Notes: a model not told the origin generated them from the sequence alone. A DNA stretch of 64,000 nucleotides from Escherichia coli (GCA_009729775.1 GCA_009729775.1_4081.1), one strand, 5' to 3'. Counted from the first letter of the stretch, positions 11,702-28,363 are shown. A program made the numbers and translations.

Positions 11702-11709
11702 AATCTTTT

Positions 11710-14039: not shown

Positions 14040-14095
14040 TTTAATTTCTCTCTTTTAGTTAGGAGGGGAACCATTCCCCTGCCTTGATGTAAACT

Positions 14096-14123: not shown

Positions 14124-14126
14124 TAC

Positions 14127-14261
14127 TTATTTGTTTTCTTTTCGTAATTTCTTTTCAGCTTCAACTACATTCTTATTTGTGCAAACTACTTCATCGGATA
14201 AATCTAACTTCCATCCAGACAGGGGTTTGGTTTGTTTCTTTGCTGCTTTGTTCGCTTTCAT
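14127..14261 (-). CDS. small Lys-rich protein (44 aa), not in ORF track
   Basis: Hand translation MKANKAAKKQTKPLSGWKLDLSDEVVCTNKNVVEAEKKLRKENK; AAAGGA RBS; own promoter at 14292-14319. Confidence 0.5.
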   Translation of the reverse strand: MKANKAAKKQTKPLSGWKLDLSDEVVCTNKNVVEAEKKLRKENK

Positions 14262-14291
14262 GATGTTTCCTTTTTAATTAAGATGTAAACT

Positions 14292-14319
14292 ATTATACAG
14301 TACTAAGATACTTTGTCAA
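14292..14319 (-). promoter_or_regulatory. sigma70-type early promoter (minus strand)
   Basis: TTGACA-N16-TATAAT, identical cassette to 14096-14123. Confidence 0.6.
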
Positions 14320-14328
14320 TCTATTTTA

Positions 14329-14529
14329 TTAGATAGTTTCCCATTTCATGTTACCCGCTTTACGCTGTGAAACAGGAATAAACATGTTATTAATGTTACT
14401 AATATAACCGACCTGTAAGTCACGCTGTGAACCATATGCCCGACTTGCTGCATTTTTAGCACCGCGTTCTGATTTATAAACGCCGCTGGATACTGTAAAG
14501 CCTACTACACCGAAAGTAAAATGTTTCAT
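14329..14529 (-). CDS. hypothetical early protein (66 aa)
   Basis: AGAGGA RBS; ORF track. Confidence 0.6.
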   Translation of the reverse strand: MKHFTFGVVGFTVSSGVYKSERGAKNAASRAYGSQRDLQVGYISNINNMFIPVSQRKAGNMKWETI

Positions 14530-14595
14530 TTTGTATTCCTCTTTGTGGTTGATGTAAGTATTATACTCGTTTACTTTCTATTGTCAATCTTTTTT

Positions 14596-14668
14596 ATCAG
14601 GGGAGTTTTTCGTATGTCTTACTCCTGGACTACTTAACGGGGTTACTTGTTTCGTTCCCCGTCCTGAT
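14596..14668 (-). promoter_or_regulatory. two-hairpin leader element between tandem promoters (copy 1)
   Basis: CAGGGGAG...CTCCTGG and AACGGGG...CCCCGTC stems; near-identical copy at 25181-25256. Confidence 0.5.
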
Positions 14669-14723
14669 GTAAAACATTATACTTGATTCTAAGTACAATG
14701 CAAGTACTTTTTAAAAATAGTTT

Positions 14724-14888
14724 TCACTTACTCATATTAACAGGCTTAAACGGTGGCAATGTAAGATCATGCGGGGTTAAACTGTCATGCTTTGCCCACA
14801 TACCAGAATCCCTACGGAATAATACCTTATTGTTTTTTATACGATAAAAGTTACCATTATCAGTGTTTTTATACCATACCATTTTCAT
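14724..14888 (-). CDS. small protein (54 aa), not in ORF track
   Basis: Hand translation MKMVWYKNTDNGNFYRIKNNKVLFRRDSGMWAKHDSLTPHDLTLPPFKPVNMSK; AGGAG RBS. Confidence 0.45.
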   Translation of the reverse strand: MKMVWYKNTDNGNFYRIKNNKVLFRRDSGMWAKHDSLTPHDLTLPPFKPVNMSK

Positions 14889-14976
14889 TTACTCCTGGTT
14901 ATGTCGTTATTAAACATTATACGGGGTTATAGATAGTTTGCAATTAGTTTTTCAGTACTAGCCACCAGCATATAAT

Positions 14977-15004
14977 AGATACATTTATGCACCCTGTGGG
15001 CTGA
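14977..15004 (+). repeat. conserved 28-bp intergenic motif (copy 3)
   Basis: AGATACATTTATGCACCCTGTGGGCTGA. Confidence 0.7.
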
Positions 15005-15032
15005 TTTGTTTCTATGCGTATATAATAGCAAA

Positions 15033-15061
15033 GGGACTGACCGGAGTCAATCCCTTTTTTA
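15033..15061. terminator. stem-loop cassette GGGACTGACCGGAGTCAATCCC plus T-run
   Basis: Same cassette as 9740-9779. Confidence 0.55.
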
Positions 15062-15068
15062 ATTCTTT

Positions 15069-15218
15069 TTAAACTTGTTTTGGGTTGCGATATGTGATAG
15101 CGTTCGGGTACATTTGTTTAATGTTATTCCATGCCTGGTTAACATTGTAACCACTTGAGCGAATCAGTTGGTTACTACCGACACCTTGAAACACTACTTC
15201 GAATAAGAATTCTTTCAT
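15069..15218 (-). CDS. small protein (49 aa), not in ORF track
   Basis: Hand translation MKEFLFEVVFQGVGSNQLIR...; GAGGTGA RBS; ATGA overlap with upstream ORF. Confidence 0.45.
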   Translation of the reverse strand: MKEFLFEVVFQGVGSNQLIRSSGYNVNQAWNNIKQMYPNAITYRNPKQV

Positions 15219-15388
15219 GCTTTCACCTCGCGATCTGCTTTACCTTTACGCCACGCTGTTGCTAATTGTTCGCGTTGCCATAAGTCGAGTGATACGTAAA
15301 GTTTTGCATTATCACCCTTCGGATACTCGCCAGTAGTACCAATCCGATAAAACAGATCTTTCAGTACTGATAATTCCACCTGGATCAT
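15215..15388 (-). CDS. small protein (57 aa), not in ORF track
   Basis: Hand translation MIQVELSVLKDLFYRIGTTGEYPKG...; AGGAG RBS; coupled to flanking ORFs by ATGA overlaps. Confidence 0.45.
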   Translation of the reverse strand: MIQVELSVLKDLFYRIGTTGEYPKGDNAKLYVSLDLWQREQLATAWRKGKADREVKA

Positions 15389-15477
15389 TGTATTACTCCT
15401 GATTGTGTTAGTACTTCTACGATGGCATGAATGATCATAAGTACAGCTAACACAACAATCATCGGATTCATTTGCAT
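15385..15477 (-). CDS. small hydrophobic peptide (30 aa), not in ORF track
   Basis: MQMNPMIVVLAVLMIIHAIVEVLTQSGVIQ; AAGGAG RBS 7 nt upstream. Confidence 0.35.
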   Translation of the reverse strand: MQMNPMIVVLAVLMIIHAIVEVLTQSGVIQ

Positions 15478-15496
15478 AAGCTGTACTCCTTATATA

Positions 15497-15709
15497 TTAA
15501 TCTTTCAGCCAATGATCTTGAATGAATTTTTCACAGAATCCCTGTTTCATAGATTCTAACAGGCGTTCACGGTGAGCGGCGGCATATTGCTCAGTACTAT
15601 GCGTTACGCCAGGTTGATAACGTGAAACACCGTCTGGTCCGATATATTGAACATCCCACGGTTTTTCGTTAGTATCAGACCATTTACGAACGATTAGTTG
15701 ACCTTGCAT
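15497..15709 (-). CDS. hypothetical early protein (70 aa)
   Basis: AGAGGA RBS; ORF track. Confidence 0.6.
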   Translation of the reverse strand: MQGQLIVRKWSDTNEKPWDVQYIGPDGVSRYQPGVTHSTEQYAAAHRERLLESMKQGFCEKFIQDHWLKD

Positions 15710-15792
15710 GTTTCTTTCCTCTTAGTGGGGAGAATCATTTCTCCCCTTCATGTAACTTATTATACAGTACTAGATTACATTGTCAATAGTTT

Positions 15793-16116
15793 TTATTCAC
15801 CTTGTTTGAATATAGTTTTCTCCATTGATTCCATGATTGCAACCAATACAGCATGGATCTCACTTAACGCGGCATCACTAAAAGCATTAATGAATAGGCA
15901 ATCATTCTCGCGAATATTTTTAATGTACTTATCAGCAGTGGTTGCGAATTCATTCAACGGCAGATCAAATGCTTTATCCCATAATGGATGGCGTAACTGT
16001 AACAGTACTGGATTATCACGGTCACCAGGTGAGAAAGTGCCTGTAATGAAACATACACCAGGGATACTTTCGAATTGACAACGAACTTCTTTTGTGATAG
16101 TAGTATGAATATACAT
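15793..16116 (-). CDS. hypothetical early protein (107 aa)
   Basis: AGAGGA RBS; ORF track. Confidence 0.6.
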   Translation of the reverse strand: MYIHTTITKEVRCQFESIPGVCFITGTFSPGDRDNPVLLQLRHPLWDKAFDLPLNEFATTADKYIKNIRENDCLFINAFSDAALSEIHAVLVAIMESMEKTIFKQGE

Positions 16117-16143
16117 TTATTTTTATCCTCTATTAAATTAATA

Positions 16144-16332
16144 TTACAGTTTATGAATCAATTCTTTATCCAAGCGATAGCGAACATTATTGATTGTAAC
16201 TGCATTGTTTTTAATGCTACGCTGTACAGGTCCACCAGCAATAACAAACGTTGCCTTATTGCCCCGAACGATGATAGCACTTCCAGGATTACCGAAATCA
16301 TCTTGTACTAAAATGCTTGATAAGTTTTGCAT
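16144..16332 (-). CDS. hypothetical early protein (62 aa)
   Basis: AAGGAAAG RBS; ORF track. Confidence 0.55.
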   Translation of the reverse strand: MQNLSSILVQDDFGNPGSAIIVRGNKATFVIAGGPVQRSIKNNAVTINNVRYRLDKELIHKL

Positions 16333-16411
16333 TTGTCTTTCCTTGTAGTGGGGAGAACTATTCTCCCCTTCATGTAAACAATTATACAGTACTGAAAACT
16401 AATTGCAAGTA

Positions 16412-16768
16412 CTATGATAAAATCATTATAGGATATTCACTATCAATCAGTACTTCAAAACCAAAACTTTCATACCATTCTTTAAGATTAAATGAGTTAT
16501 CTTCTCCCGTATCGCATTCTAAGATGATACAATCTGAATCATCGGCCGCATCAATAAAGGCATTCATTAATTCAGTACCTTCACCGTTACCGCGATTATC
16601 GGGATCAACATAAAGAGAATCAATAAACGCTACACGATCATAATCAAGATCTGGTGCAACAATGCCACGTTTAACAAACCAGTACTGCAATTGTGCTACT
16701 TTGCCTTGTACTTGATAGCCAGTGATCTCACCATTGTCTGTAGTACGCGTGATATGTTGTATACCCAT
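16412..16768 (-). CDS. GNAT-family N-acetyltransferase-like protein (118 aa)
   Basis: RGNGEGTELMNAF matches the acetyl-CoA-binding motif A pattern R-x-x-G-x-G of GNAT enzymes. Confidence 0.5.
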   Translation of the reverse strand: MGIQHITRTTDNGEITGYQVQGKVAQLQYWFVKRGIVAPDLDYDRVAFIDSLYVDPDNRGNGEGTELMNAFIDAADDSDCIILECDTGEDNSFNLKEWYESFGFEVLIDSEYPIMILS

Positions 16769-16831
16769 GATTTCAATCCTCAGTTAAGATATAAAATATT
16801 ATACACTAACTAACAGTACTGTCAATACTTT

Positions 16832-17089
16832 TTATCTCATAGATCTATGCCAACAATTACGCGGTTGACGTTTAAAAATACTATCATGATCCTCCTGGCA
16901 AGTTATGCAGTACTTACATCCCTTAACGGCCTGGCGACGTTTCTCAGGGATTATATCACCGCAGTCGAGGCAATGTATCAGTGATTCTATTTGTGCGTTA
17001 ATTTGCGTTCTAGCGTGGTTAACAGCGGCCTGAATCACTGCGTTAATCTCGTCTTGCTCGGCCCCATCTTTCGTGAATCCTACAGCCAT
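16832..17089 (-). CDS. TraR/DksA-type C4 zinc-finger protein (85 aa)
   Basis: C-x2-C ... C-x2-C (CLDCGDIIPEKRRQAVKGCKYCITCQ) with RR, characteristic of the TraR/DksA zinc finger. Confidence 0.55.
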   Translation of the reverse strand: MAVGFTKDGAEQDEINAVIQAAVNHARTQINAQIESLIHCLDCGDIIPEKRRQAVKGCKYCITCQEDHDSIFKRQPRNCWHRSMR

Positions 17090-17334
17090 TATTTTAACCT
17101 CATTATAAAAATACTATAGTACTGTAATGCGACAATAATATTACTTGTTCTTACTTTTTCCAATCCACATGATACAACATATTCATCCCCATATGTTCGA
17201 AACGAAACACCATGAAAATTTTTATACACTTGCACTTCTAATCATAACCTTTTGTCTAACCAACTGCGTAGAATTATACTACTTTACGCAAATTGATCAA
17301 GTATTGATCAGATCATTTTTTGATCAATATTATA

Positions 17335-17363
17335 CAGTTACATTTGTGCACCCTATGGGTTAG
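17335..17363 (+). repeat. conserved 28-bp intergenic motif (copy 4, variant)
   Basis: CAGTTACATTTGTGCACCCTATGGGTTAG. Confidence 0.6.
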
Positions 17364-17420
17364 TGCCTTGTGTCCGGCTTATGTACTTATTATACAGTAC
17401 TTGATGATATTGTCAATAGT

Positions 17421-17618
17421 TTATTTTAATTTTTTTCTGTCATTGATTAATGCTTTCAGTACTATACTAATAACTTGCAATGATTCATCAATGACTATAA
17501 AATTATTTTCTTTCATTAGATGATAGTTACCATTGATTGTATATTCTAATGAGTACTGTTTACGTTTAATTTTTGATAATGTATCAATTTGTTTTTGTAC
17601 TGATTTCATGCTAATCAT
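17421..17618 (-). CDS. hypothetical protein (65 aa)
   Basis: ORF track only; weak RBS. Confidence 0.35.
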   Translation of the reverse strand: MISMKSVQKQIDTLSKIKRKQYSLEYTINGNYHLMKENNFIVIDESLQVISIVLKALINDRKKLK

Positions 17619-17723
17619 TGTTAAACGTCCTGTAATGCATTCTAACGAGATAAACGGTTTAGTACTGGCATTGTATAGGGTAAATGATTAAAGCCCACCA
17701 GCGTTAACCAGTGGGCTATAATC

Positions 17724-17867
17724 TTACATCTTGCGGATAATCTTAACAGTATCTTTCACCGATTTACCGTCTTGCTGACATTGTTCGATCATCGCGTATT
17801 GTTCTGCGGTCAGATCCTCGCCAGTTTTTGCCAGTACTGCGTCGATGAATGAATCCAGTGCGATCAT
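17724..17867 (-). CDS. small protein (47 aa), not in ORF track
   Basis: Hand translation MIALDSFIDAVLAKTGEDLTAEQYAMIEQCQQDGKSVKDTVKIIRKM; AGAGAG RBS. Confidence 0.45.
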   Translation of the reverse strand: MIALDSFIDAVLAKTGEDLTAEQYAMIEQCQQDGKSVKDTVKIIRKM

Positions 17868-17966
17868 TTTATTTCTCTCTTAGGTTAAGTTAACTACTGT
17901 TGATAAAAGTTATTATACAGTACTATCAAACATTGTCAATAGATTTAATAGTACTGGTAATATATT

Positions 17967-18146
17967 TTAGCGGTAATCGTCGTATGCTTTATTAACCTGG
18001 CGAATGTAACTTTCAAAGGCTTCGTCTACCGTTTCATACTCCCGAACATAATCACCATAGGAAACTACATACATCCCTTTTTGATCTTCAAACGTCATGA
18101 TGATAGAATCCAGTCCGATGATTTCAGTTTTTGCGATAATAGCCAT
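17967..18146 (-). CDS. hypothetical early protein (59 aa)
   Basis: Start adjusted to MAIIAKTEII... Confidence 0.55.
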   Translation of the reverse strand: MAIIAKTEIIGLDSIIMTFEDQKGMYVVSYGDYVREYETVDEAFESYIRQVNKAYDDYR

Positions 18147-18237
18147 TTTAGTATTCCTTAAATTAATATGCGTTGTCTTGATAAAAGTTATTATGCCAGT
18201 ACTATCAAACGTTGTCAATAGTACTGTGATAATATTT

Positions 18238-18450
18238 TTAGTTAATGATAGTCAGTGTAAAATTGTAATCCCCTGCCTGGTATAGTACTTTATCGCCGAA
18301 CGTGCCAACACGTTTCATATTGCAATAGATACCCATAACATTTTTTACATCTTTGATATTCCGAACGCCAGTGATATCCTTGTTGAAATTTTCATGATCA
18401 GAAAATAAAACTTGTTTTGCATTTTTCAGTACAGTGCAGATATTAGCCAT
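18238..18450 (-). CDS. hypothetical early protein (70 aa)
   Basis: AGAGAG RBS; ORF track. Confidence 0.6.
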   Translation of the reverse strand: MANICTVLKNAKQVLFSDHENFNKDITGVRNIKDVKNVMGIYCNMKRVGTFGDKVLYQAGDYNFTLTIIN

Positions 18451-18550
18451 TTCGATTTCTCTCTGTTAGTAGGGAAGTACTGTTACTTCCCGTGCCTTGA
18501 TGTAAACTATTATACAGTACTATAATCTATTGTCAAACTATTTTTTAATA

Positions 18551-18892
18551 TTATTCAAAATCTTCTGGACCGGACTGATAATCATCCTCACCGTATGCAC
18601 TTTCTAACTTCTCGCCAGTGTAATCATCAGTTAGTGAGTCATCCTCATAGTTCACGTCTACGCCCGTGATGTAAAACTGGCTATCGTCTGGATCATTGAA
18701 ATTAATTTTCTGAATGTTTACAATAACTGTATTGATACCCAGGACACAGCCATCAGCCGTTACAAAGTACTGATATTTTTCACATCCACCACTATTGAAA
18801 CCGTAATTGATTTCGGCCCGACCATCATTTAAACGCAGTGCCTGAGCGATGATTTCGTTTTCAAAGTTAGATTGAGCAATTGCAATAGTCAT
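18551..18892 (-). CDS. hypothetical acidic protein (113 aa)
   Basis: AAGGAAA RBS; acidic C-terminus. Confidence 0.6.
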   Translation of the reverse strand: MTIAIAQSNFENEIIAQALRLNDGRAEINYGFNSGGCEKYQYFVTADGCVLGINTVIVNIQKINFNDPDDSQFYITGVDVNYEDDSLTDDYTGEKLESAYGEDDYQSGPEDFE

Positions 18893-19025
18893 GATTCGTT
18901 TCCTTATTACCAGGGGAAACCGTTTCCCCTTGCGATGTAAAACATTATACGCCTATTGATATAGTTTGCAAGTACTTTTTATCAAATACTTTAAAATAGT
19001 TTTCAGTACTCAATCATTATACAAT

Positions 19026-19053
19026 AGATACACTTATGCACCCTGTGGGCTAG
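19026..19053 (+). repeat. conserved 28-bp intergenic motif (copy 5)
   Basis: AGATACACTTATGCACCCTGTGGGCTAG. Confidence 0.7.
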
Positions 19054-19087
19054 TGAGCTATCTCTCAATGAATACATAATAGCAAAA

Positions 19088-19115
19088 TGGCTGACCGAAG
19101 TCAACCACTTTTTTT
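19088..19115. terminator. stem-loop cassette GGCTGACCGAAGTCAACC plus T-run
   Basis: Variant of the cassette that recurs at 45-60 kb. Confidence 0.55.
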
Positions 19116-19252
19116 CATTTATTTTTAGCTTTTAGAATCGCCGCCTTTCGCGTCATGCCTTGCTTGATGTACTCCTTTACTTTCGCTTTACGTGCTTTCG
19201 CTTTATCTGCTTTCGTTTTAGGAGTACTGTAAATTAAACCGTTAGGATTCAT
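19115..19252 (-). CDS. small Lys/Ala-rich protein (45 aa), not in ORF track
   Basis: Hand translation MNPNGLIYSTPKTKADKAKARKAKVKEYIKQGMTRKAAILKAKNK. Confidence 0.4.
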   Translation of the reverse strand: MNPNGLIYSTPKTKADKAKARKAKVKEYIKQGMTRKAAILKAKNK

Positions 19253-19342
19253 TTAAATCACCATAAAGAATAGATAGGTTACTAACAATGCCGCCAGTAC
19301 TGCACCGACCAGGGCCGAACTATAGTAAGCTAATGATTTCAT
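19253..19342 (-). CDS. small hydrophobic peptide (29 aa), not in ORF track
   Basis: MKSLAYYSSALVGAVLAALLVTYLFFMVI; start overlaps stop of 19339-19491 (ATGA). Confidence 0.3.
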   Translation of the reverse strand: MKSLAYYSSALVGAVLAALLVTYLFFMVI

Positions 19343-19491
19343 TTTTTAGCCTGAAAGTAATGTTTAATTTGTGCGGCGGTCAGTGCACAATTACGCAGGA
19401 AGTTTTCTGTATAACTTTTACGAGTACTGAAAGAGTACTGACCTTTCCCGTTACCGATAGTAACATCAAACCGAGCGTTATATTGTTTCAT
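19339..19491 (-). CDS. hypothetical early protein (50 aa)
   Basis: Start adjusted to MKQYNARFDV... Confidence 0.5.
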   Translation of the reverse strand: MKQYNARFDVTIGNGKGQYSFSTRKSYTENFLRNCALTAAQIKHYFQAKK

Positions 19492-19559
19492 TTTGTTTCT
19501 CCTAGTATCGGGGAGAACCATTCCCCCCCTCTATGTAAACAATTATACAGTACTGAAAA

Positions 19560-19880
19560 CTAATTGCAAGTACTTTCTAAGTAATGTTTATAAGCTGAAT
19601 CAACCACTCTTTCGATAACATACGCTAACGGCACGTATCCAACTACATGACTACAATAAAAAGGACTACGATTAGAATCATCGTATGCAAATACTTTTTC
19701 AGGATCTGCATCAATCACATACATATTAACCTTTAAGATGTCTATCTTATCCTGTACAGTAAGCATATTACGCCGCCTTATCAGTACTGGCAACCGGACG
19801 GATACGGGCCATTTCATGGGCTTGTTCCACACTGTAACGCTCATAAAGGCGGCATTCTTCCGGTGTAGGAACAGCATCAA
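19560..19880 (-). CDS. hypothetical protein (up to 106 aa; start uncertain)
   Basis: Track ORF begins at a TTG; internal ATG at 19766 has a GGCGG-type RBS. Confidence 0.45.
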   Translation of the reverse strand: MMLFLHRKNAAFMSVTVWNKPMKWPVSVRLPVLIRRRNMLTVQDKIDILKVNMYVIDADPEKVFAYDDSNRSPFYCSHVVGYVPLAYVIERVVDSAYKHYLESTCN

Positions 19881-19989
19881 TACGTTTCATTGGTTTAATG
19901 ATGCTTTCAACTTCATTCAGTACTTGATTAACGTTCATGGTATAATCCCCAATATAAGCGGCCTAAATCGACCGCTAACGATGTTTTGA

Positions 19990-20259
19990 TTAATAGGTGT
20001 ATGGTTGACGCTCAAACAATGATTGCACGTTGTACGCCCCGCTAATGGGCTTTGCTGGCAAATCAATTTTATATTGTTCACGCTTAAAAATAATAAAACG
20101 GCAATTGTTTTTAACATCAAAATTGATTGAACGTTCCAATAGCTTTCCTTCGTGTACAAATACAAGATAACCGCTTGCTACTTGTTTTGTAGTACTGGTT
20201 GCAACCATTGACCGACGAACATGAGTACCTGCATCGATTAAAGTACTGATATTTTTCAT
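19990..20259 (-). CDS. hypothetical protein (89 aa)
   Basis: AGAGGA RBS; ORF track. Confidence 0.6.
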   Translation of the reverse strand: MKNISTLIDAGTHVRRSMVATSTTKQVASGYLVFVHEGKLLERSINFDVKNNCRFIIFKREQYKIDLPAKPISGAYNVQSLFERQPYTY

Positions 20260-20339
20260 TTTACTATCCTCTTAATTTGATTTAATTTCTTTCCCCTATG
20301 CAGACACTATATCAAAGTATCTGCATAAAGTAAAGCTAA

Positions 20340-20684
20340 TTAAAGATCTTTTTTGCGTTTAACATCAGTTACCGAACTGTAAACAGTGATATTATTGTCA
20401 CGGCAAAAACGGGAAAGATAAGAACCGCGTAAAAACTCTTTATCTTCCATATTAATAACCTTGCTAAATTCTTCCATTGCTACAGTGTCAAAGTGATCCC
20501 CGTATCCATATTGGAACGGCACGTTTACTACTTCAATAAAATTACCATCAATTTCTACGTCTACACTTAAAGAGAAATAAGTGTTACCATATGAAGCCTG
20601 GAACCAACGCCGAGCGGCAATATGTACAACTTCAACAGAAGACAGGTTGATATTTTGTGCTGAGATAGTGTTGATGTTAGCCAT
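20340..20684 (-). CDS. hypothetical protein (114 aa), paralog of 13716-14039
   Basis: GNTY, YGYG, VKRKKD motifs. Confidence 0.65.
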   Translation of the reverse strand: MANINTISAQNINLSSVEVVHIAARRWFQASYGNTYFSLSVDVEIDGNFIEVVNVPFQYGYGDHFDTVAMEEFSKVINMEDKEFLRGSYLSRFCRDNNITVYSSVTDVKRKKDL

Positions 20685-20770
20685 TTTAATTTCCTCTTAG
20701 TTGTCTTGATAAAATCTATTATGCCAGTACTATCAAACTATGTCAATAGTACTGTGATAATAATTTTACT
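20685..20770 (-). promoter_or_regulatory. 85-bp promoter/RBS cassette, duplicated at 20980-21065
   Basis: Near-identical sequence including TTGACA-type promoter, RBS AGAGGAAA and ATG. Confidence 0.6.
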
Positions 20771-20978
20771 TACTTTGCTTTGATGCTTTATGTTGTGCAA
20801 CTGCCATCACTACATCAGCACGAACAAAGTTAGCAACCGTATCAGTATAATATTTGATTGCATCGTCAATATCTGCGAACATCCGATACATTCCGCACCA
20901 TGATACTTTATAACCCGCTTTCACTTGTTCCAGTTTAACCAGTGAATTGTTTACTTTGATTTTTGTAATGATAGCCAT
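20766..20978 (-). CDS. hypothetical protein (70 aa)
   Basis: AGAGGAAA RBS. Confidence 0.6.
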   Translation of the reverse strand: MAIITKIKVNNSLVKLEQVKAGYKVSWCGMYRMFADIDDAIKYYTDTVANFVRADVVMAVAQHKASKQSK

Positions 20979-20979
20979 T

Positions 20980-21065
20980 TTTGTTTCCTCTTAGTTGTCT
21001 TGATAAAATCTATTATGCCAGTACTATCAATCTATGTCAATAGTACTGTGATAATAATTTTACTT
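20980..21065 (-). promoter_or_regulatory. 85-bp promoter/RBS cassette, second copy
   Basis: Direct repeat of 20685-20770. Confidence 0.6.
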
Positions 21066-21203
21066 ACTTTTTGCTTTCTTTATTGCTTCCACCTGGTCGG
21101 CCCACTCTTTACCCCATACTTGAGCGTTATAGTGATACTGACAAAGAGCAACGCCCCGTTTCAAACCAGTGATAGATTTTTTACCACATTGACAAGTTTT
21201 CAT
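21060..21203 (-). CDS. small Cys-rich protein (47 aa), not in ORF track
   Basis: Hand translation MKTCQCGKKSITGLKRGVALCQYHYNAQVWGKEWADQVEAIKKAKSK; AAGAGGAAA RBS; possible Zn-binding C-x-C...C-x-Y-H. Confidence 0.45.
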   Translation of the reverse strand: MKTCQCGKKSITGLKRGVALCQYHYNAQVWGKEWADQVEAIKKAKSK

Positions 21204-21288
21204 TTTTAGTTTCCTCTTAGTGGGGAGAATCATTTCTCCCCTTGATGTAATGTATTATACTTTATCCGATTTACTTTGCAAGTACTTT

Positions 21289-21516
21289 TTAGTTTAATTC
21301 ATCCAGGCATAAGATACGATCTACGCCGAGATCCGTTAAGCTAATGGTTGGCACTTGATAGGTTTCAATGTATTCTACACTAGCCCACTGACCGAACTCA
21401 TTCACCGCCCAGGTATTCATTGCAAAATGTAATTCCGCACCTTTCTTATTAGTAATTACAGCAACAGTAGAAGAATTGCCAGTAGTACCAGATACGCGAG
21501 TGATTACGATAGCCAT
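21289..21516 (-). CDS. hypothetical protein (75 aa)
   Basis: AGGAA RBS; ORF track. Confidence 0.6.
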   Translation of the reverse strand: MAIVITRVSGTTGNSSTVAVITNKKGAELHFAMNTWAVNEFGQWASVEYIETYQVPTISLTDLGVDRILCLDELN

Positions 21517-21586
21517 TGTTTTGATTCCTATTCAGTAGTTGATGTATGTATTATGTCAGTACTTAAAACTATTGTCAAACTATTTT

Positions 21587-21739
21587 TTAAAGACTATCTA
21601 CGATAGCTGCCGTTTCAATAATAGACTTACCTTTTTTTGAACATGCAATAACTGCTTTAAATTCCTTTGATGACCATTCTTTTTTACTGCATACTAACAT
21701 TACTTGCATAGTGAAACAATCCAGTTCATAAGTATTCAT
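21587..21739 (-). CDS. small protein (50 aa), not in ORF track
   Basis: Hand translation MNTYELDCFTMQVMLVCSKKEWSSKEFKAVIACSKKGKSIIETAAIVDSL; GAGGA RBS. Confidence 0.4.
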   Translation of the reverse strand: MNTYELDCFTMQVMLVCSKKEWSSKEFKAVIACSKKGKSIIETAAIVDSL

Positions 21740-21960
21740 CTTTAAATCCTCAGTTAGTTAAGGTGTCTTGCCTTGATGTAACTAATTATACGCCTTTCTC
21801 TTAATCGTGCAAGTACTTTTTATTACTTTTTGCAAAATACTTTAAACGCTCTCAATCGCATTCTAACGGCCTTAACTCCACCAGCTAGGGCGATGCATCA
21901 GATAATCAGTTTAATGCGTTAGAATCGATTCTATGAGGTGCTGACGGTCTGGAATGCAAT

Positions 21961-21993
21961 AAAAACAAAAAAGCCCACTGCTTATAGTGGGCT
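21961..21993 (-). terminator. rho-independent terminator
   Basis: AGCCCACT-loop-AGTGGGCT hairpin with long U-run on the minus strand, after the stop of 22015-22497. Confidence 0.7.
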
Positions 21994-22014
21994 AGTGATT
22001 CAGTACTTTAAATG

Positions 22015-22497
22015 TTATGCTTCAATTTTGCGGTGAGATTCGATCCATTCCTCGCGAGTCATACCGCTTTCTTTGATAGCATCCAGTACTACCGCAATGC
22101 AGTTACCGCGTACAGGAATCAAATGTTCTTCCCCGTTATCAAGGACAACCGTAACACGTTCTTGAATCCATTTTTTAGGCTTAGATTCCGGCTTATCTTC
22201 ACCGTACTTAACCGCCAGGGCTTTATGTGCCATTTCAATAACCACTTCCAGATCTAAACCAGACACCGCCGCCTGAATACTTTCTATTGTTGCTTGCAGT
22301 TCTGCTTCACGGGCTTTTTTCTGTTCTTCCAGTTCTGCTACCTTTTTGGCTTGTAGTTCTTTCGCTTCACTGTAAGCAATGTTAAAATTGTTGCGTACTG
22401 CTTTCATGGTATCATTATCCAGGTCAGCCAGCAATTCAGCAGCAATCACAGTATCGTTAGAAATCAGTGCTTTCAGAAATGATTTTACATTAGCCAT
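22015..22497 (-). CDS. putative H-NS-like nucleoid-associated protein (160 aa)
   Basis: Start adjusted to MANVKSF... (GAGGA RBS); N-terminal coiled-coil-like region, C-terminus LDNGEEHLIPVRGNCIAVVLDAIKESGMTREEW parallels the H-NS DNA-binding core [34 protein letters not shown]. Confidence 0.4.
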   Translation of the reverse strand: MANVKSFLKALISNDTVIAAELLADLDNDTMKAVRNNFNIAYSEAKELQAKKVAELEEQKKAREAELQATIESIQAAVSGLDLEVVIEMAHKALAVKYGEDKPESKPKKWIQERVTVVLDNGEEHLIPVRGNCIAVVLDAIKESGMTREEWIESHRKIEA

Positions 22498-22684
22498 TTT
22501 ATAAATCCTCAATTAAAGTTTAAGTTAGTTTATCAAAGTTTGTTTGACGTGTCCAGTTTTTCATTCGACTTACTGGCGGTCTACTTAATGTTCCCCGTCT
22601 TGATGTAATACATTCTACGCTTTTCCCTGGTAATGTCAACTACTTTTTTAAAACTATTTTCAAAGTATACCAGTACTACGATAA

Positions 22685-22720
22685 TACAAAAACAAAAAAG
22701 CCCACTGTTTAAGGTGGGCT
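22685..22720 (-). terminator. rho-independent terminator
   Basis: AGCCCAC-loop-GTGGGCT hairpin plus U-run on minus strand after 22738-23037. Confidence 0.7.
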
Positions 22721-22737
22721 AGTGATTCAGTACTAGA

Positions 22738-23037
22738 TTATAAACAGTTAATTACTCCGGTGTGCGTTACTTTCTCAGTATCCATCACAGTGACCGAACC
22801 GCGTTTAGTACTGGCATCATAATAAATTGTTGTGCTACCGTTTTTGTCTTCTTCATGGAACGGGCCGTTTTTAAATGCTTCCGGCTGGATCTCTAAATCC
22901 TTTAATACAATCTCGCCAGTTCTTTCATCGGTCATTGCAACAGTGCACTGAATGAATTTTTCACTACTTACATCTAATGACGCATTAACAGCGAAAGAGG
23001 AAACAGATAAAGCCAGGGCGATGATTGCAATTTTCAT
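22738..23037 (-). CDS. secreted small protein with signal peptide (99 aa)
   Basis: N-terminus MKIAIIALALSVSSFAVNAS; AAGGATA RBS. Confidence 0.6.
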   Translation of the reverse strand: MKIAIIALALSVSSFAVNASLDVSSEKFIQCTVAMTDERTGEIVLKDLEIQPEAFKNGPFHEEDKNGSTTIYYDASTKRGSVTVMDTEKVTHTGVINCL

Positions 23038-23121
23038 TTGATTATCCTTAGTTACCAGGGGGAACCGCTCCCCCTTGCTATGTAAAATATTATACAGTAC
23101 TAAAAACTAATTGCAAGTACT

Positions 23122-23358
23122 TTATGATTTTTTATAAAACATTTCGGCAGTGATATTTTTACCCGTTGGCTGTACTTTATCCAGAATTTTTTGATGCCCT
23201 GGCCGTCCAAATGAATATGATCCGTAAACCGTAAACCAGTAGTTACCCTCAGTGTTTACATGTACAGCACAATAGGGAACGCCCCGCGATTCATCACTAG
23301 TAAAGTGTGCTACCGTTCCCGTTACATTCGAAGTCGTTGATTTGATTTGTTCAAGCAT
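23122..23358 (-). CDS. hypothetical protein (78 aa)
   Basis: AAGGAATA RBS; ORF track. Confidence 0.6.
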   Translation of the reverse strand: MLEQIKSTTSNVTGTVAHFTSDESRGVPYCAVHVNTEGNYWFTVYGSYSFGRPGHQKILDKVQPTGKNITAEMFYKKS

Positions 23359-23466
23359 TTTCTTATTCCTTAGTTACCAGGGGAACCGCTCCCCTATGCA
23401 AAACATTATACGCGTTTAAAAACTATTGTCTAGTATTTTAATAAAAAGTATTTGAAAAATAGTTGT

Positions 23467-23495
23467 TGACAAGTGCATCCAGTACTGGCATAATA
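23467..23495 (+). promoter_or_regulatory. plus-strand sigma70-type promoter driving a short non-coding transcript
   Basis: TTGACA-N17-CATAAT on the plus strand; no plus-strand ORF follows. Confidence 0.45.
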
Positions 23496-23519
23496 CTTAC
23501 ATAAAGACGAGATAGTCAC

Positions 23520-23548
23520 TAACCCACAGGGTGCATAGATCCGTCTAT
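23520..23548 (-). repeat. conserved 28-bp intergenic motif (copy 6, inverted orientation)
   Basis: Plus strand reads CTAACCCACAGGGTGCATAGATCCGTCTA, reverse complement of the core. Confidence 0.65.
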
Positions 23549-23565
23549 TAAATGATTCAGTACTG

Positions 23566-23593
23566 CAAAATAAAGGGGATCAATTGATCCCCT
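23566..23593 (-). terminator. rho-independent terminator
   Basis: Perfect palindrome GGGGATCAATTGATCCCC followed by U-run on minus strand after 23599-23820. Confidence 0.7.
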
Positions 23594-23598
23594 CTGTA

Positions 23599-23820
23599 TT
23601 ACTTAGTAAGGTATAAACAGAAGTCACCTTTATTTGCTACGCCGCCAGTGTAACGCGATGAATAGTTAGAAACGTCCTGGACTTCTGCTATTACCAGTGT
23701 ATCATCATTCAATTCGTCGCAGAAGCAAACGGCTGGATCTTTTACGCCGATATTGTCGGCATGTTCCCGCATAGATTTAACCAGTGCTTCAAGTTGGGAA
23801 AGAGTAGTGATATTAGCCAT
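23599..23820 (-). CDS. hypothetical protein (73 aa)
   Basis: Start adjusted to MANITTLSQ...; GAGGAAAA RBS. Confidence 0.6.
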   Translation of the reverse strand: MANITTLSQLEALVKSMREHADNIGVKDPAVCFCDELNDDTLVIAEVQDVSNYSSRYTGGVANKGDFCLYLTK

Positions 23821-23907
23821 TTTATTTTCCTCATTACCAGGGAGAACCATTTTCTCCCCTCTATGTAAACCATTATACAGTACTAAAAACTAATTGCAAG
23901 TACTTTT

Positions 23908-24111
23908 TTAATTTAATTGCTTTAAAACATACTCAAAGACACCACGCACATCATTGATCATCGCCTGGCGGTTAGCAGGTAACGCATCAGGATCGCCACT
24001 ATCCCAGGCATTGATAAAACTCCCCAAATCATGATAGATTTTATTCTGTAAGCCGATCAACTGCAATTCTTTTTCTTCAAGCTCTTTGATACGTTCAATT
24101 AAATCACTCAT
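23908..24111 (-). CDS. hypothetical protein (67 aa)
   Basis: Start adjusted to MSDLIERIKELEEK...; AAGGA RBS. Confidence 0.55.
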   Translation of the reverse strand: MSDLIERIKELEEKELQLIGLQNKIYHDLGSFINAWDSGDPDALPANRQAMINDVRGVFEYVLKQLN

Positions 24112-24128
24112 TATATAATCCTTAGTAC

Positions 24129-24410
24129 TTAATTGTAAGATCCGCAACGGTCGCAGTAGTGCCCCTCGTCATCGTCAACGAATTGACCAACGAAATTATC
24201 TACTTTCGCTTTCAGGTTATTATAATCGTTTTCTACTTCCTTTAAACGCTTCTGGTAGTATTCCAGTGCTTTAAGATATGCCGCATCAGTAGTTTTCTCC
24301 TGCATAGCTAAATTCATGCCACGCGTTTCATCATAAAGCCAATAACCATCAGTACATTGGCTAATAGACAATGACTTGCTTAACACTGTATAGTTAATTA
24401 CTTTGCTCAT
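24129..24410 (-). CDS. hypothetical protein (93 aa)
   Basis: Start adjusted to MSKVINYTVL... Confidence 0.55.
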   Translation of the reverse strand: MSKVINYTVLSKSLSISQCTDGYWLYDETRGMNLAMQEKTTDAAYLKALEYYQKRLKEVENDYNNLKAKVDNFVGQFVDDDEGHYCDRCGSYN

Positions 24411-24500
24411 TAGATAACCCTCAGTAAAGGCGGGAACCACTCCCCGCCTCGATATAAAGTATTATACGCTTTTAAACTTAGTATGCAAGTACTTTTTAAA

Positions 24501-25112
24501 TTAATATGCGATAGATTCTACTACATCGTCGATAACGTTAAATTGATATTCGTTACCCTCAATCAGTCCTACAATGTTTTCAGTAGTAAACTGGTCTTCA
24601 TAAGCATTTTCTAAATCACGGTACAGCTTACAAGATAATTCTCGGATAGTATCAGTCAGTAAGTTTTCCAGATCCTCAGCTAATGCAGCCTGTTTTACAG
24701 TTAAATCAGTGTAGCGAGTATCAACGCAACCGCCTACCGTGTTTTCGTGAGCGTAGCGTGATTGGGAACGTTCTACACTCATTTCCAAATCATCTTCGTT
24801 CAACAGGTGACGGATGGAACGATATTTCGTTAACGCCTTAACCTTGCGTAAAAACTTCTCAGCGTCAACGTGGTCAGTACTGATTGATGCACCGTCACCT
24901 TGCGACCAAAAACCACTGTATTGCAATTCAGCTTCATCTATGCCGTATTCTGGCAGTACTGTTTCTTTATAGTATTCCAGTACTGATTCAGCAAAGAAAT
25001 TATCCTCACTTGCACGTTCCCGATCCCGAACCAGTTCGATAGCCGCCGCTTGTTGTTCTGCGTTCAGTTCAGAAAAATCCATAACGAAAGTAGTAGTAGT
25101 GATAGTTTTCAT
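24501..25112 (-). CDS. hypothetical acidic protein (203 aa)
   Basis: GAGGG RBS; ORF track. Confidence 0.65.
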   Translation of the reverse strand: MKTITTTTFVMDFSELNAEQQAAAIELVRDRERASEDNFFAESVLEYYKETVLPEYGIDEAELQYSGFWSQGDGASISTDHVDAEKFLRKVKALTKYRSIRHLLNEDDLEMSVERSQSRYAHENTVGGCVDTRYTDLTVKQAALAEDLENLLTDTIRELSCKLYRDLENAYEDQFTTENIVGLIEGNEYQFNVIDDVVESIAY

Positions 25113-25180
25113 TTTGTAACCCTCATTCAGTAGTTGATGTAAGTATTATACGCTTTTAAAAACAATTGTCAAACTATTTT

Positions 25181-25256
25181 ATCAGGGGAGTTTTTCGTGT
25201 GCCTTACTCCTGGGCTACTTAACGGGAAGTTACTTATTTCGTTCCCCGTCCTGATG
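25181..25256 (-). promoter_or_regulatory. two-hairpin leader element between tandem promoters (copy 2)
   Basis: Near-identical to 14596-14668. Confidence 0.5.
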
Positions 25257-25325
25257 TAAAACATTATACGCCTTTAAACATAGTTTGCAAGTACTTTTTG
25301 AAAATAGTTTTTATCTCTTTCATAT

Positions 25326-25353
25326 AGATACATTCCCGCACCCTATGGGCTAT
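25326..25353 (+). repeat. conserved 28-bp intergenic motif (copy 7)
   Basis: AGATACATTCCCGCACCCTATGGGCTAT. Confidence 0.65.
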
Positions 25354-25411
25354 CGCCTTGTGTCCGGCTTGTAAGTATTATCTCACTAAGCCGGATAACG
25401 GTCAAGTACTT

Positions 25412-25678
25412 TTATTCAAGTACTGCAATCTTTTTAGTACTGTATACAGTAACGCGGTTGCCCTTTCGGTCGTGCTTTATTTCTACCACTCGACGCGATA
25501 CACTATCAGGACTTTTTAAAACCGATCTCCAGTACTGAATTGATCGGGCTGTACTTTGCTTTACTACGGCCCAACGTTTACCACGTTCAGAATGTACGCC
25601 CATATCTTTAAACGTCGCCCCGTCCTGGCGTGCGGCAATCCGAGCAAGTTCACGCGTTGCAAAGTATATAATATTCAT
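25412..25678 (-). CDS. hypothetical protein (88 aa), paralog of 13221-13616
   Basis: Start adjusted to MNIIYFATRELARI...; shared IKHDRKGNRVTVYS block. Confidence 0.6.
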   Translation of the reverse strand: MNIIYFATRELARIAARQDGATFKDMGVHSERGKRWAVVKQSTARSIQYWRSVLKSPDSVSRRVVEIKHDRKGNRVTVYSTKKIAVLE

Positions 25679-25760
25679 GCTGTTACCCCTATCGTTGTTG
25701 TATAAAAGAAATCTATTATAAAGTACTATCACCGTGCAATAGTACTTTTAATCTATTCTC

Positions 25761-26000
25761 TTACATTCCAACCATCGCCGCACGGATCGCAGTAGTGCTA
25801 TACTTAAAGCCGTCCGGTGTTTTATCTTGTCCAGTCTGTTCTAAAAATAGCATCATATGACGGGCCGCATCATTACGATTAGTGTTAGCGGCAATAAAGT
25901 CCTGGGCCAACCGGTATAATGATTCGTCGTTATTAATCCAAAGGCTTACATTCCATTGAGTTTTGTTTTTGTGACCTAAGAACATTTTTGATTTAGCCAT
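25761..26000 (-). CDS. hypothetical protein (79 aa)
   Basis: Start adjusted to MAKSKMFLGHKN...; AGAGGA RBS. Confidence 0.55.
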   Translation of the reverse strand: MAKSKMFLGHKNKTQWNVSLWINNDESLYRLAQDFIAANTNRNDAARHMMLFLEQTGQDKTPDGFKYSTTAIRAAMVGM

Positions 26001-26093
26001 TTTTTTAATCCTCTTATATAGTGGGGAACTATTCCCCACCTGATGTAAAACATTATACGCTTTTAAACTTAGTTTGCAAGTACTTTATTAAAC

Positions 26094-26456
26094 TTATTCG
26101 TAAATCTTTCCACTATCAGCCCATACCAGGAAACGAGGCATATTATCCCATGCATCTTGTTTTAAATTTAAACCGTGTAATACTTCTGTACTTTCCATTC
26201 CTGGTACTGGTTTACTATACACCGCGAACATTTCGCCCATGTACTGATAAGCCATCGTTAAATCACTGGCGATCATCTTATGAATCATCGCATCAAGCAT
26301 CACGGTAGCGGCGTATTGTTCACGCTTAAGCGGTAACATTGCAATAAGTTCCCGATAAGCTGAAATGTGAATTTTTACCGTTTCAGCCGGAAGATCTTTC
26401 ATCTCTTCACGGAAGTTAACCAGGTTAGCAATAATTTTAGTGATTTGAGTAGCCAT
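26094..26456 (-). CDS. hypothetical protein (120 aa)
   Basis: Start adjusted to MATQITKIIANLV...; AGAGAG RBS. Confidence 0.6.
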   Translation of the reverse strand: MATQITKIIANLVNFREEMKDLPAETVKIHISAYRELIAMLPLKREQYAATVMLDAMIHKMIASDLTMAYQYMGEMFAVYSKPVPGMESTEVLHGLNLKQDAWDNMPRFLVWADSGKIYE

Positions 26457-26762
26457 CGTTTTAATCTCTCTTAAAGTGTAGCGGGAAGTGTTCCCGCTCT
26501 CGATGTAAAACATTATACGCCTATCGGGATAGTATGCAAGTACTTTCTACTAATACTTTTAAAATAGTTTTCTTTCTATATAGGAGTACTATCATTCAGT
26601 ACTGAATCAACCAAATCACTACTATACCCCATAAAACGGCCTCAGCCGCTTTCTAACGCATTAATACACCTAAGCTATACATTTGCACCGCCACCAGCTA
26701 ACCAGGGCTTTATAGGCCGTTTAAGGGCGTTAAATTATTTTCAATTATTTTGTTTTTAGCTA

Positions 26763-26790
26763 TTGACTCAGTACAAAAAAAGCGTATAAT
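26763..26790 (+). promoter_or_regulatory. plus-strand sigma70-type promoter in non-coding hub
   Basis: TTGACT-N16-TATAAT; no ORF downstream. Confidence 0.45.
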
Positions 26791-26977
26791 TACTACATAG
26801 ACGCGAGAAAGCGGATACCCCAGGGGGTGGGAAGATCCGTCCAAAATTCATATAATTTAAAAAGGATACACTCCCGCACCTTAGCAGGTCATAGCACTTT
26901 CTCAGTACTGAATCATAGTACCATAGTACGCCCCTGGATGGCAAGCAAATTAATTAAAACTTTTTACATCCAGGGTA

Positions 26978-27005
26978 TTGCTTTATTTTTCCAGTACTGT
27001 ATAAT
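26978..27005 (+). promoter_or_regulatory. plus-strand promoter-like element in non-coding hub
   Basis: TTGCTT-N16-TATAAT followed by motif copy 8. Confidence 0.35.
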
Positions 27006-27029
27006 AGTTTCATCAAGTCGAGAAAGACT

Positions 27030-27057
27030 CAAGCCCACCGGGTGCATAGTTGTATCT
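27030..27057 (-). repeat. conserved 28-bp intergenic motif (copy 8, inverted orientation)
   Basis: Plus strand reads CAAGCCCACCGGGTGCATAGTTGTATCT. Confidence 0.65.
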
Positions 27058-27102
27058 AAAATTCAGTACTGAATTATTTTTTAAAAATATCCATCCAGGC
27101 GG

Positions 27103-27131
27103 TTGACATATCCATCAAAAAGATAGATAAT
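27103..27131 (+). promoter_or_regulatory. plus-strand sigma70-type promoter reading into the iteron block
   Basis: TTGACA-N17-GATAAT; followed by GGGGAAACCATCCCC hairpin. Confidence 0.45.
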
Positions 27132-27224
27132 GATTCCAGATTCAGAAAAATCTAACTCCAGATACTGCGGGGAAACCATCCCCACGCGGTAGGGGAACTA
27201 TTGGAAAAAACAAAATAAAAATTT

Positions 27225-27400
27225 TGATTTAGCCGTCTGTACTTCCAGACGTGTAACCATCTAGCCGTTTAGCCGTCCAAACGTCTAGCCATCCAGCCGC
27301 CTAGAGGGATAGCCATCTTTACTTCCAGACTTCTGGAGGGCTAGACATATCTACGTCCAAAATCCACCCAGGGTAACTACGCCCAAAATCCGTCAGTACT
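27225..27400. repeat. iteron-like cluster of short direct repeats
   Basis: TAGCCGT/TAGCCAT repeated at least 5 times, ACTTCCAGAC twice, CCAAAATCC twice, within about 180 bp of non-coding DNA. Confidence 0.6.
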
Positions 27401-27942
27401 ATACTATAGATCTATCTTTTGAAAGGGAGTATTCAGTACTGCCACAATAGCCCTCACTGTTACTGTAGGAGGATGAAGACTATCATGTAGTACTGAATAC
27501 TGTTAGAGGGAATCCACCAGCTTGTGCTGGTGGCATAATGCATTAGATTAAAATCAGTACTGACACCATTCTGTTAATATCAGTACTGTTTATATTACGA
27601 AAAAAGAGGTTATAAAAAGATGTACCACCCATAGGAGGAACTATCCTTTCAGTACTGTCTCACGACAGGAGGTAGAGTGAATGAATTGTTTGCGGCAACT
27701 CATCTCTCTATGTAGAACATTATACAGTACTGAATCATAATGTCAATAGCTTTCTTTCATTATTCAGTACTGAAATCGTATAATCTGTATCGCTACAAAA
27801 CTCATTATATCCCACAAATCCTATATGTCCCAACGTAAATTTCAACTTTCGAAGATCCAACTTTTATTTCATAGGTACTCCAAATTTTTTACGATCCAGA
27901 TTTAGGATGGAGTACTAACCAACTTTTTGCTGGAGCCTCAAG

Positions 27943-27990
27943 GGGTAATTGAATTTTACCCCGAATGGTAAAGGGGTAATTGAAATTAAG
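27943..27990. repeat. GGGGTAATTGAA direct repeat with embedded hairpin
   Basis: GGGGTAATTGAATTTTACCCC inverted repeat followed by a second GGGGTAATTGAA. Confidence 0.5.
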
Positions 27991-28009
27991 GTGAAAGTAA
28001 TAATTCAGT

Positions 28010-28260
28010 ACTAATCATTGCGTGATTACTTTTGATTACATTTGATGTAATTTGCAAAATGGAAAAGGAGCTTGGAAACTACAAAGTACGGCAGACTTCC
28101 TCTGCCTACTTAGTGGCATATCAGTACTGCTACGTTCTTGATTAAACGTGAACATTCCTGTACTCTAGTACTCACTACTGATCACTACAGTGATTATAAA
28201 TGATTACTTAAATGTTTATATATGATTACTTATGACTACCTATGATTACGGGGTTTAGCC
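28010..28260. repeat. cluster of TGATTAC heptamer repeats
   Basis: At least 7 copies of TGATTAC (or TGACTAC) in about 250 bp of non-coding DNA. Confidence 0.55.
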
Positions 28261-28363
28261 TGGGGAGAATCCTAGTGATCGCATTTGTCCAGGCTGAATT
28301 TTAACAATTCGCCTGTACATAAAGGTTGTTCACTAGGAGCTTCCCCTGTCTACTTGTGTTTAA

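Follow-up and report, generated by a model that had tools for sequence, protein, structure and literature searches.

Why should one short heptamer recur so densely in DNA that encodes no protein, and what might such a cluster serve? The question is raised by a 64,000-nt stretch (one strand) of the Escherichia coli assembly GCA_009729775.1, hereafter the window, in which a first-pass annotation had counted TGATTAC or TGACTAC at least seven times between positions 28010 and 28260 and had proposed that the repeats form a multimeric protein-binding site. Here, by homology with related phages, we place the heptamers in two arrays, one on each side of the point where the virion chromosome physically ends at the right, which is the right boundary of its direct terminal repeat (DTR), and we weigh the functions that an element of this kind could have.

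Heptamer arrays in a region free of reading frames

By sequence similarity the window is Asteriusvirus jumbo coliphage genome, related to 121Q, PBECO4 and G17, and the region considered here is 80-97% identical to its counterparts in the Asteriusvirus phages 121Q, PBECO4, G17, Sharanji and others. The description of the heptamer-bearing DNA as non-coding holds, since an ORF scan of 26514-28363 returned a sole 41-aa ORF with a TTG start and nothing credible as a gene, and the curated G17 record leaves the homologous gap without any CDS. A tRNA scan and an Rfam scan of the whole 64-kb window gave zero matches. The same 1.85 kb also holds 18 copies of AGTACT and 11 copies of CAGTACTG. The region and its repeats, with the strand where one applies, are the following:

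26514..28363, no strand: ORF-free, repeat-rich region of 1.85 kb that spans the right DTR boundary
27719..27746, minus strand: sigma-70-type promoter, TTGACA-16-TATAAT, 12/12 consensus positions (consensus match only), pointing leftward into the DTR genes
28023..28049, plus strand: array A, within the DTR, units at a period of 10 with T-tracts in phase, TGATTAC ttt TGATTAC att TGATGTA
28112..28207, no strand: hypervariable spacer outside the DTR, with CAGTACTG (28122) and the non-conserved TGATTAA (28139), TGATCAC (28179), TGATTAT (28191) and TGATTAC (28201)
28179..28249, plus strand: array B, outside the DTR, heptamers beyond the cut
28213..28249, plus strand: conserved core of array B, TGTTTAT ata TGATTAC tta TGACTAC cta TGATTAC, period 10

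The clustering noticed at first pass is genuine, although the count has to be corrected. Six exact copies are present, namely TGATTAC at 28023, 28033, 28201, 28223 and 28243 and TGACTAC at 28233, and the number rises to nine when a single mismatch is allowed (TGATTAA at 28139, TGATCAC at 28179 and TGATTAT at 28191). Two further units with two mismatches stand in register (TGATGTA at 28043 and TGTTTAT at 28213), for a total of 11. The copies occupy a single strand, the plus strand, at a spacing of 10-12 nt. Tandem Repeats Finder places arrays of period 10 at 28023-28046 and 28191-28249, and self-identity at a lag of 10, measured in 240-nt segments, is higher at 28023 than anywhere else in the 64 kb (0.452 vs 0.277 ± 0.034).

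Heptamers with at most one mismatch thus number nine in 250 nt, compared with a mean of 0.66 and with five in the runner-up segment of that length, and 200 first-order Markov simulations gave no count above six. Plus-strand TGATTAC occurs nine times in the window, and five of these copies fall within 28023-28249. Across the whole 64 kb, TGAYTAC was observed 28 times against 24.8 expected, which is the background level, and the signal is therefore purely local. The annotation had suggested that the frequency of the heptamer be compared with the genomic background, and the comparison gives a divided answer: overall frequency equals background while local clustering is highly significant. A test of overall frequency is misleading in this case because a background count coexists with a strong local cluster.

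The right end of the chromosome

By homology, the right boundary of a DTR of about 20 kb is at 28110|28111 in the window. The DTR, its right end and the inverted repeats at and near the cut have these positions:

8287..28110, plus strand: DTR of 19,824 bp, with its left end at 8287 and its right end at 28110, both placed by homology
28110..28111, no strand: position at which packaged DNA ends on the right, with the cut between ...CCTACT and TAGTGG..., by homology with nine GenBank records
28084..28111, no strand: terminal inverted repeat, AAGTAcGGCAGA-cttcc-TCTGCCTACTT, with the chromosome end at its 3' base
28262..28346, no strand: conserved long hairpin (inverted repeat) between array B and the stop codon, at 28364, of the first gene of the unique region
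27942-27953 and 27973-27984, plus strand: two copies of GGGGTAATTGAA, with a hairpin GGGGTAA/TTACCCC at 27942-27962

Nine DTR-containing GenBank records (G17, CRJP21, E9.1, ELP-22, Ec-M-J, BF17, fEgEco12, WPEC5 and WPEC3) end or start at one and the same nucleotide (...GGCAGACTTCCTCTGCCTACT), which corresponds to 28110|28111, and the 130 nt preceding this right terminus are identical or nearly so across all nine. The G17 record, at 370,817 bp, includes both copies of the DTR (20,668 bp each); its first bases, AGGTTACCCGCCCTTTAGCC, match the window at 8287 and its last bases, ...ggcagacttcctctgcctact, match it at 28110. In the Ec-M-J record, 1..21525 is annotated as 'Direct Terminal Repeats'. 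The left end is base-precise in three records (G17, WPEC5 and fEgEco12), all of which open with AGGTTACCCGCC, equivalent to position 8287. Ends that are precise to the base in nine records at the right and in three at the left are not the permuted or imprecise ends of headful packaging. PhageTerm analyses in the literature give Sharanji a DTR equal in length to the 20,668 bp of G17 (PMC11895373), BF17 one of about 20.5 kb (PMC10059673) and fEgEco12 one of 20,993 bp that restriction digests confirm (PMC13070987).

The position of the Asteriusvirus terminus is already public through GenBank records and PhageTerm reports. In the searchable papers on Asteriusvirus termini we found no description of the sequence features located there. 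We classify the element as a probable site for recognition or processing of a DTR boundary, to which the spacer quantised in 10-bp steps, described below, adds a new detail. The end motifs, ...GGCAGACTTCCTCTGCCTACT at the right and AGGTTACCCGCC... at the left, allow Asteriusvirus records that are circular or arbitrarily opened to be re-oriented, and the conserved end motif supports the published doubt on the 8.3-kb DTR of UE-S1 (PMC13070987). A scan of IMG/VR with the 21-mer of the terminus returned 121Q itself as the only match, and the start of the record of Pectobacterium phage CBB, whose DTR is known from coverage only, showed no recognisable terminus features.

The left DTR boundary at 8287 sits in an intergenic stretch (8200-8440). 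When this left terminus was checked for a heptamer array or a significant hairpin, neither was found, which is what a recognition site confined to one boundary would lead one to expect. Just outside the chromosome, CTA is found at both ends when read 5' to 3' inward (GCTA|AGG at the left, ACTA|AGT on the bottom strand at the right). This context would be compatible with one nuclease cutting in both orientations and is suggestive only.

The terminal inverted repeat that ends at the cut has a predicted DNA fold of -7.7 kcal/mol (z -5.6), none of 200 shuffles being as stable, and it is invariant among the relatives compared. Terminators predicted at 28090-28109 are matches to this same inverted repeat and have no real T-run, and they were rejected. 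Beyond array B, the long hairpin at 28262-28346 folds at -19.5 kcal/mol (z -4.6). Three of its pairs show compensatory changes in the JNE01/Turkey5 lineage, and the more distant Klebsiella phage fENko-Kae01 has a stem that resembles it. As a classical terminator this hairpin was ruled out, the T-run being absent.

A less prominent structure lies upstream of array A. The first-pass annotation had joined GGGGTAATTGAA, present twice with an embedded hairpin, to the heptamer cluster. Both copies and the hairpin do exist, but the hairpin at 27942-27962 is weak (-5.6 kcal/mol, z -1.7) and poorly conserved, and the grouping itself fails, GGGGTAATTGAA being the least conserved part of the locus: its segment at 27950-27979 has a column identity of about 0.70 and is deleted in Turkey5 and CMSTMSU. 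The GGGGTAATTGAA repeats are probably accessory and dispensable.

Conservation and helical register across the cut

Conservation was compared by column identity among 15 Asteriusvirus genomes, a comparison which the annotation had named as a check and in which array A and the core of array B proved nearly invariant. Identity is 0.88-0.98 over the segment of ~27990-28116 that holds array A, the hairpin and the cut, and 0.93-1.00 in the array and hairpin themselves; array A is invariant in 10 records and carries one additional unit in Ec-M-J. The core of array B (28210-28249) is present in 15/15 genomes at an identity of 0.93-1.00, and the core together with the sequence up to GTCCAGGCTGAATTTTAAC (~28210-28306) at 0.86-1.00. 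Between these two arms the spacer at 28117-28207 has an identity of 0.64-0.89, with many indels and wholesale replacement of sequence, and the proximal heptamers of array B (28139-28207) are missing from many relatives, such as PBECO4, G17, SHEFM2K and SP27. The last heptamer of array B is split in TH47, UE-S1 and ph0011 by a palindromic insertion of 30 bp (CAAAGAGAAGC-yaaw-GCTTCTCTGTAGAG), homologous in position to 28245|28246, so that not every copy would be needed. This insertion, which may be a mobile hairpin element of small size, keeps the 10-bp register by its length.

In the window, array A starts 88 nt before the cut and spans -88 to -61, while array B extends from about +69 to +139. 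This 88-nt interval between the first base of array A and the cut is kept in 13 of the 15 genomes. TGTTTAT, the conserved unit of array B, follows the cut at a distance of 103, 113, 123, 133, 143, 153 or 243 nt, and these seven length classes are equal modulo 10 in 14 of the 15 genomes; the exception is CMSTMSU, whose record is flagged UNVERIFIED_ORG. The changes that produce the different lengths are of several kinds, including single 10-bp gains, the 30-bp insertion, which is not a repeat, and full replacement of the sequence. One TGATCACTAC unit was gained in 121Q. The longest distance, 243 nt, belongs to slurp01, in which the spacer holds three tandem copies of a 60-bp unit starting CAGTACTGAATCATTC and in which the change amounts to a 10-bp indel plus two extra 60-bp units.

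We take this pattern as evidence that helical phase across the cut is conserved and that the rotational register of the cut and array A relative to array B is under selection. Under such selection the two arms would act jointly, from the same face of the helix. Some of the 10-bp quantisation may stem from slippage of 10-bp units, which counts against the function that we favour below, but 10-bp slippage alone is insufficient because the 30-bp, the 2 x 60-bp and the replacement changes keep the phase too. A multimeric protein-binding site, as first proposed, is consistent with the single orientation of the repeats, their 10-bp period, their near-invariance and their phase; what that proposal had missed is the setting at a chromosome end.

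The distant relative fENko-Kae01 has a DTR of 19,736 bp, determined by PhageTerm and annotated in its record. At the homologous boundary the landmark GATTTAGGATGGAGTACT is kept and is followed by two 10-bp repeats (TAGTACTTTT x2), then by a hairpin of unrelated sequence with a 9-bp stem that ends exactly at the cut, and then by TAG. CTA stands just outside the chromosome at both ends of this phage as well. Outside its DTR no array was seen, and its repeat unit differs from the heptamer. The same order, composed of different sequences, indicates that the succession of phased repeats, hairpin and cut is older than the heptamer sequence.

A probable role in chromosome-end formation, and its alternatives

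On balance, and with confidence only a little better than even, we favour the explanation that the arrays constitute a phased multimeric protein-binding element which organises how the right chromosome end is made, probably by terminase. Judged from sequence, they would most likely be a docking site for the DNA-packaging machinery and not a generic protein-binding site. An oligomeric DNA-binding protein, the likeliest candidate being either the small subunit of terminase or a factor that gives terminase its specificity, may dock on the phased heptamers, on one helix face and on both sides of the cut. The bound protein could bend, wrap or loop the DNA and so present the inverted repeat to the terminase nuclease, which would cut after ...CCTACT and create the right chromosome end. 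Array A would then leave with the packaged DNA, at 61-88 bp from the right terminus, and array B would stay on the concatemer, once per genome, just after the left copy of the DTR. More speculatively, duplication of the DTR may be primed by the terminal inverted repeat folding back on itself, as has been proposed for T7.

Docking of the packaging machinery is opposed by the absence of an outside array and the different repeat unit in fENko-Kae01, and by the proximal heptamers of array B, which are lacking in many relatives, the last heptamer being split in three. A further point against it is that T4-type terminases, to which the terminase of this clade is related, are not known to require a defined site. 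In phages with long exact DTRs (T5, SPO1-like phages and many jumbo phages) the recognition and cutting of the ends and the duplication of a repeat of 10-20 kb are poorly understood. The element described here is a compact candidate cis-element of about 250 bp for these processes, in which the cut, marked by a hairpin, lies between two conserved arms and the spacer may have any sequence but varies in length by 10-bp steps.

By analogy, the architecture is closest to the pac site of P1 and also resembles pacL-pacC-pacR of SPP1. It is a member of neither class, because the ends are exact and not headful and the repeats are without GATC, save for one copy in nine (TGATCAC, 28179). Sternberg and Coulby are said to have described the P1 repeats in a 4 + 3 layout. 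The P1 pac site has seven hexanucleotide repeats (PMC11260489). In both systems short direct repeats (TGATCA/G in P1, TGATTAC here) flank a central region of terminase cleavage, with several repeats per arm that are presumed to be bound by a recognition subunit. P1 differs in its headful packaging and permuted ends, compared with the exact ends and 20-kb DTR of Asteriusvirus, and in that each of its repeats has a GATC and is regulated by Dam methylation. The Asteriusvirus repeats, for their part, are 7-mers with a strict 10-bp period in a larger element (190-330 bp) that has a hairpin at the cut.

In the Bacillus phage SPP1, pac consists of pacL, pacC and pacR and is bound by the small terminase G1P; bent, repeat-bearing binding regions flank the cleavage site and the oligomeric small terminase is thought to join them. 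Two repeat-containing regions on either side of the cut are thus common to SPP1 and the present element, but SPP1 is a headful packager and sequence similarity is absent.

For the biology, again by analogy, the nearest counterparts of the element are the DTR boundaries of T7 and T5. The concatemer junction of T7 and T3 comprises pacB, a right-end hairpin intermediate and short repeats arrayed beside the terminal repeat, and the hairpin or inverted repeat of T7 has been implicated in right-end processing and in duplication of the DTR. T7 is accordingly alike in its exact DTR, in the short repeats near the boundary and in the presence of a hairpin or inverted repeat. However, its DTR is 160 bp long against about 20 kb, its terminase is of another lineage, and in the window the arrays bracket one boundary only.

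An extension of the docking model, which we regard as unlikely, is that the arrays, the 10-bp-quantised spacer and the hairpin together form a scaffold of 190-330 bp for a filament or wrapped complex, with about one subunit per 10 bp, that would bridge the chromosome end and, beyond guiding the cut, could cap the right end or serve as a T5-like stop. If this were true, the scaffold would be a previously undescribed organiser of jumbo-phage termini, the 20-kb DTR could act first during entry of the 350-kb genome, and the strict modulo-10 spacing, as opposed to 10.5, would reflect DNA overwound on a protein surface.

Less probable again is that the locus controls entry in the manner of T5, with a stop in injection such that the DTR and its small early genes would be transferred and expressed ahead of the other parts of the chromosome, or that it is the site of an end-capping protein. 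T5 has a long DTR of small early genes with a short repeat on either side of the boundary and, towards the interior of the chromosome, an extensive repeat-rich stretch at the DTR end that is not translated, and each of these has a counterpart here: the DTR is long and packed with small genes, all pointing to the chromosome end, a strong sigma-70-like promoter stands at its inner end (27746..27719), and the ORF-free region of 26514-28363 runs across the boundary. The LTR end of T5, annotated at 10219 in record AY543070 (9700-10900), is straddled by copies of GTGCAAATCCGAC; we found no discussion in the literature of these boundary repeats as a terminase site. For the T5 iss, paired DnaA boxes have been proposed as the conserved feature, and 131-bp inverted repeats are described (bioRxiv 10.1101/866236), whereas DnaA boxes (TTWTNCACA) are absent from 18784-31067 and such inverted repeats were not found here. 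The T5 repeats are, moreover, dispersed 13-mers that are not phased at 10 bp. A search of the literature found no report of two-step transfer for this clade, and the symmetry with which the arrays surround the cut, together with the phase kept across it, points to cutting and not to a stop within the DTR.

A role in replication, with the heptamers as iterons of an origin or with the hairpin and arrays serving only to duplicate the DTR, is in our view improbable. Direct repeats at the helical period beside AT-rich DNA are typical of iteron origins, and the terminal inverted repeat could prime fold-back synthesis. The cumulative GC skew has its minimum at ~27-28 kb despite genes on both flanks that lie on the minus strand. 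However, the change in skew is confined to a 3-kb run of paralogs of ~60 aa and to the plus-strand genes that come after it, so that composition and transcription, as features of the local gene content, can explain it at least in part. The run at 28364-31232 (minus strand) consists of genes of ~60-80 aa, at least three phrog_11711 paralogs among them. The coding strand of these genes is C-rich and the plus strand accordingly has a GC skew of +0.06 to +0.2, opposite to that of the neighbouring minus-strand genes, which produces the apparent switch at the DTR boundary. An origin is further opposed by the lack of DnaA boxes and of an adjacent initiator-like gene, the genes flanking the region matching only PHROGs without assigned function. 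The heptamers are also far shorter than classical iterons of 17-22 bp, and an origin alone would leave the exact coincidence with the chromosome end unexplained.

We give equally little credence to the repeats having no specific function at all, in which case they would be slippage-prone sequences tolerated at a non-coding junction and their conservation would reflect a short time of divergence. The number of copies does vary, by an array A unit in Ec-M-J and by a TGATCACTAC unit in 121Q, and the genomes compared are close relatives in the region, at the 80-97% identity given above. Yet conservation is uneven inside 250 nt (1.00 vs 0.64), indels that are not slippage (30 bp, 2 x 60 bp and replacement) preserve the phase, and fENko-Kae01, in spite of its distance, keeps the order of repeats, hairpin and cut with different sequences.

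Transcriptional control is the least probable reading: heptamers acting as operators of a phage or host regulator, for leftward early transcription of the DTR or for the end of the leftward operon that runs in from 31 kb, would suit a site between the end of a minus-strand operon (stop 28364, hairpin 28262-28346) and leftward promoters (27746..27719), as would the small palindrome ATTACA-N5-TGTAAT of a dimeric-regulator type in array A, but array A lies ~280 bp from the nearest predicted promoter, sigma-70 promoter prediction found none in 27850-28360, one DTR copy is separated from array B in virion DNA, and a regulator would leave both the coincidence with the cut and the phase across it unexplained.

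Other repeats are also abundant in this DNA. AGTACT has 260 copies in the 64 kb against ~22 expected from base composition, at a density of 6.4 per kb within the DTR versus 3.0 per kb outside, and is densest in 8287-28110 and 26514-28363. The palindrome CAGTACTG has 58 copies where shuffles predict 0.8; it occurs in non-coding DNA as well as in all three frames of long ORFs, and it is frequent too in short stretches of fENko-Kae01 and CBB. Nothing relevant on CAGTACTG or AGTACT was found in the literature on jumbo phages, and a regulator operator, a modification target and a nucleoid-protein site are candidates for the role of CAGTACTG. In sigma-70-like promoters of the form TTGACA-N8-CAGTACTG-TATAAT it fills the spacer up to the -10 element, which suggests an operator inside early promoters. 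The copies of this kind are at:

9595, 11240, 16387, 19548, 27725 and 50588, minus strand: CAGTACTG linked to a promoter of sigma-70-like consensus
23480 and 26992, plus strand: CAGTACTG linked to a promoter of sigma-70-like consensus

A tandem repeat of a 16-bp unit, TCCAGACGTCTAGCCA, lies untranslated inside the DTR at 27244-27304 (and 27227-27338), with 3.8 copies and 71% matches. Outside the DTR, the plus strand of 31317-41203 encodes eight tandem paralogs of 358-449 aa with RCC1-like beta-propeller repeats (Pfam RCC1/RCC1_2/WD40_RLD; phrog_4219).
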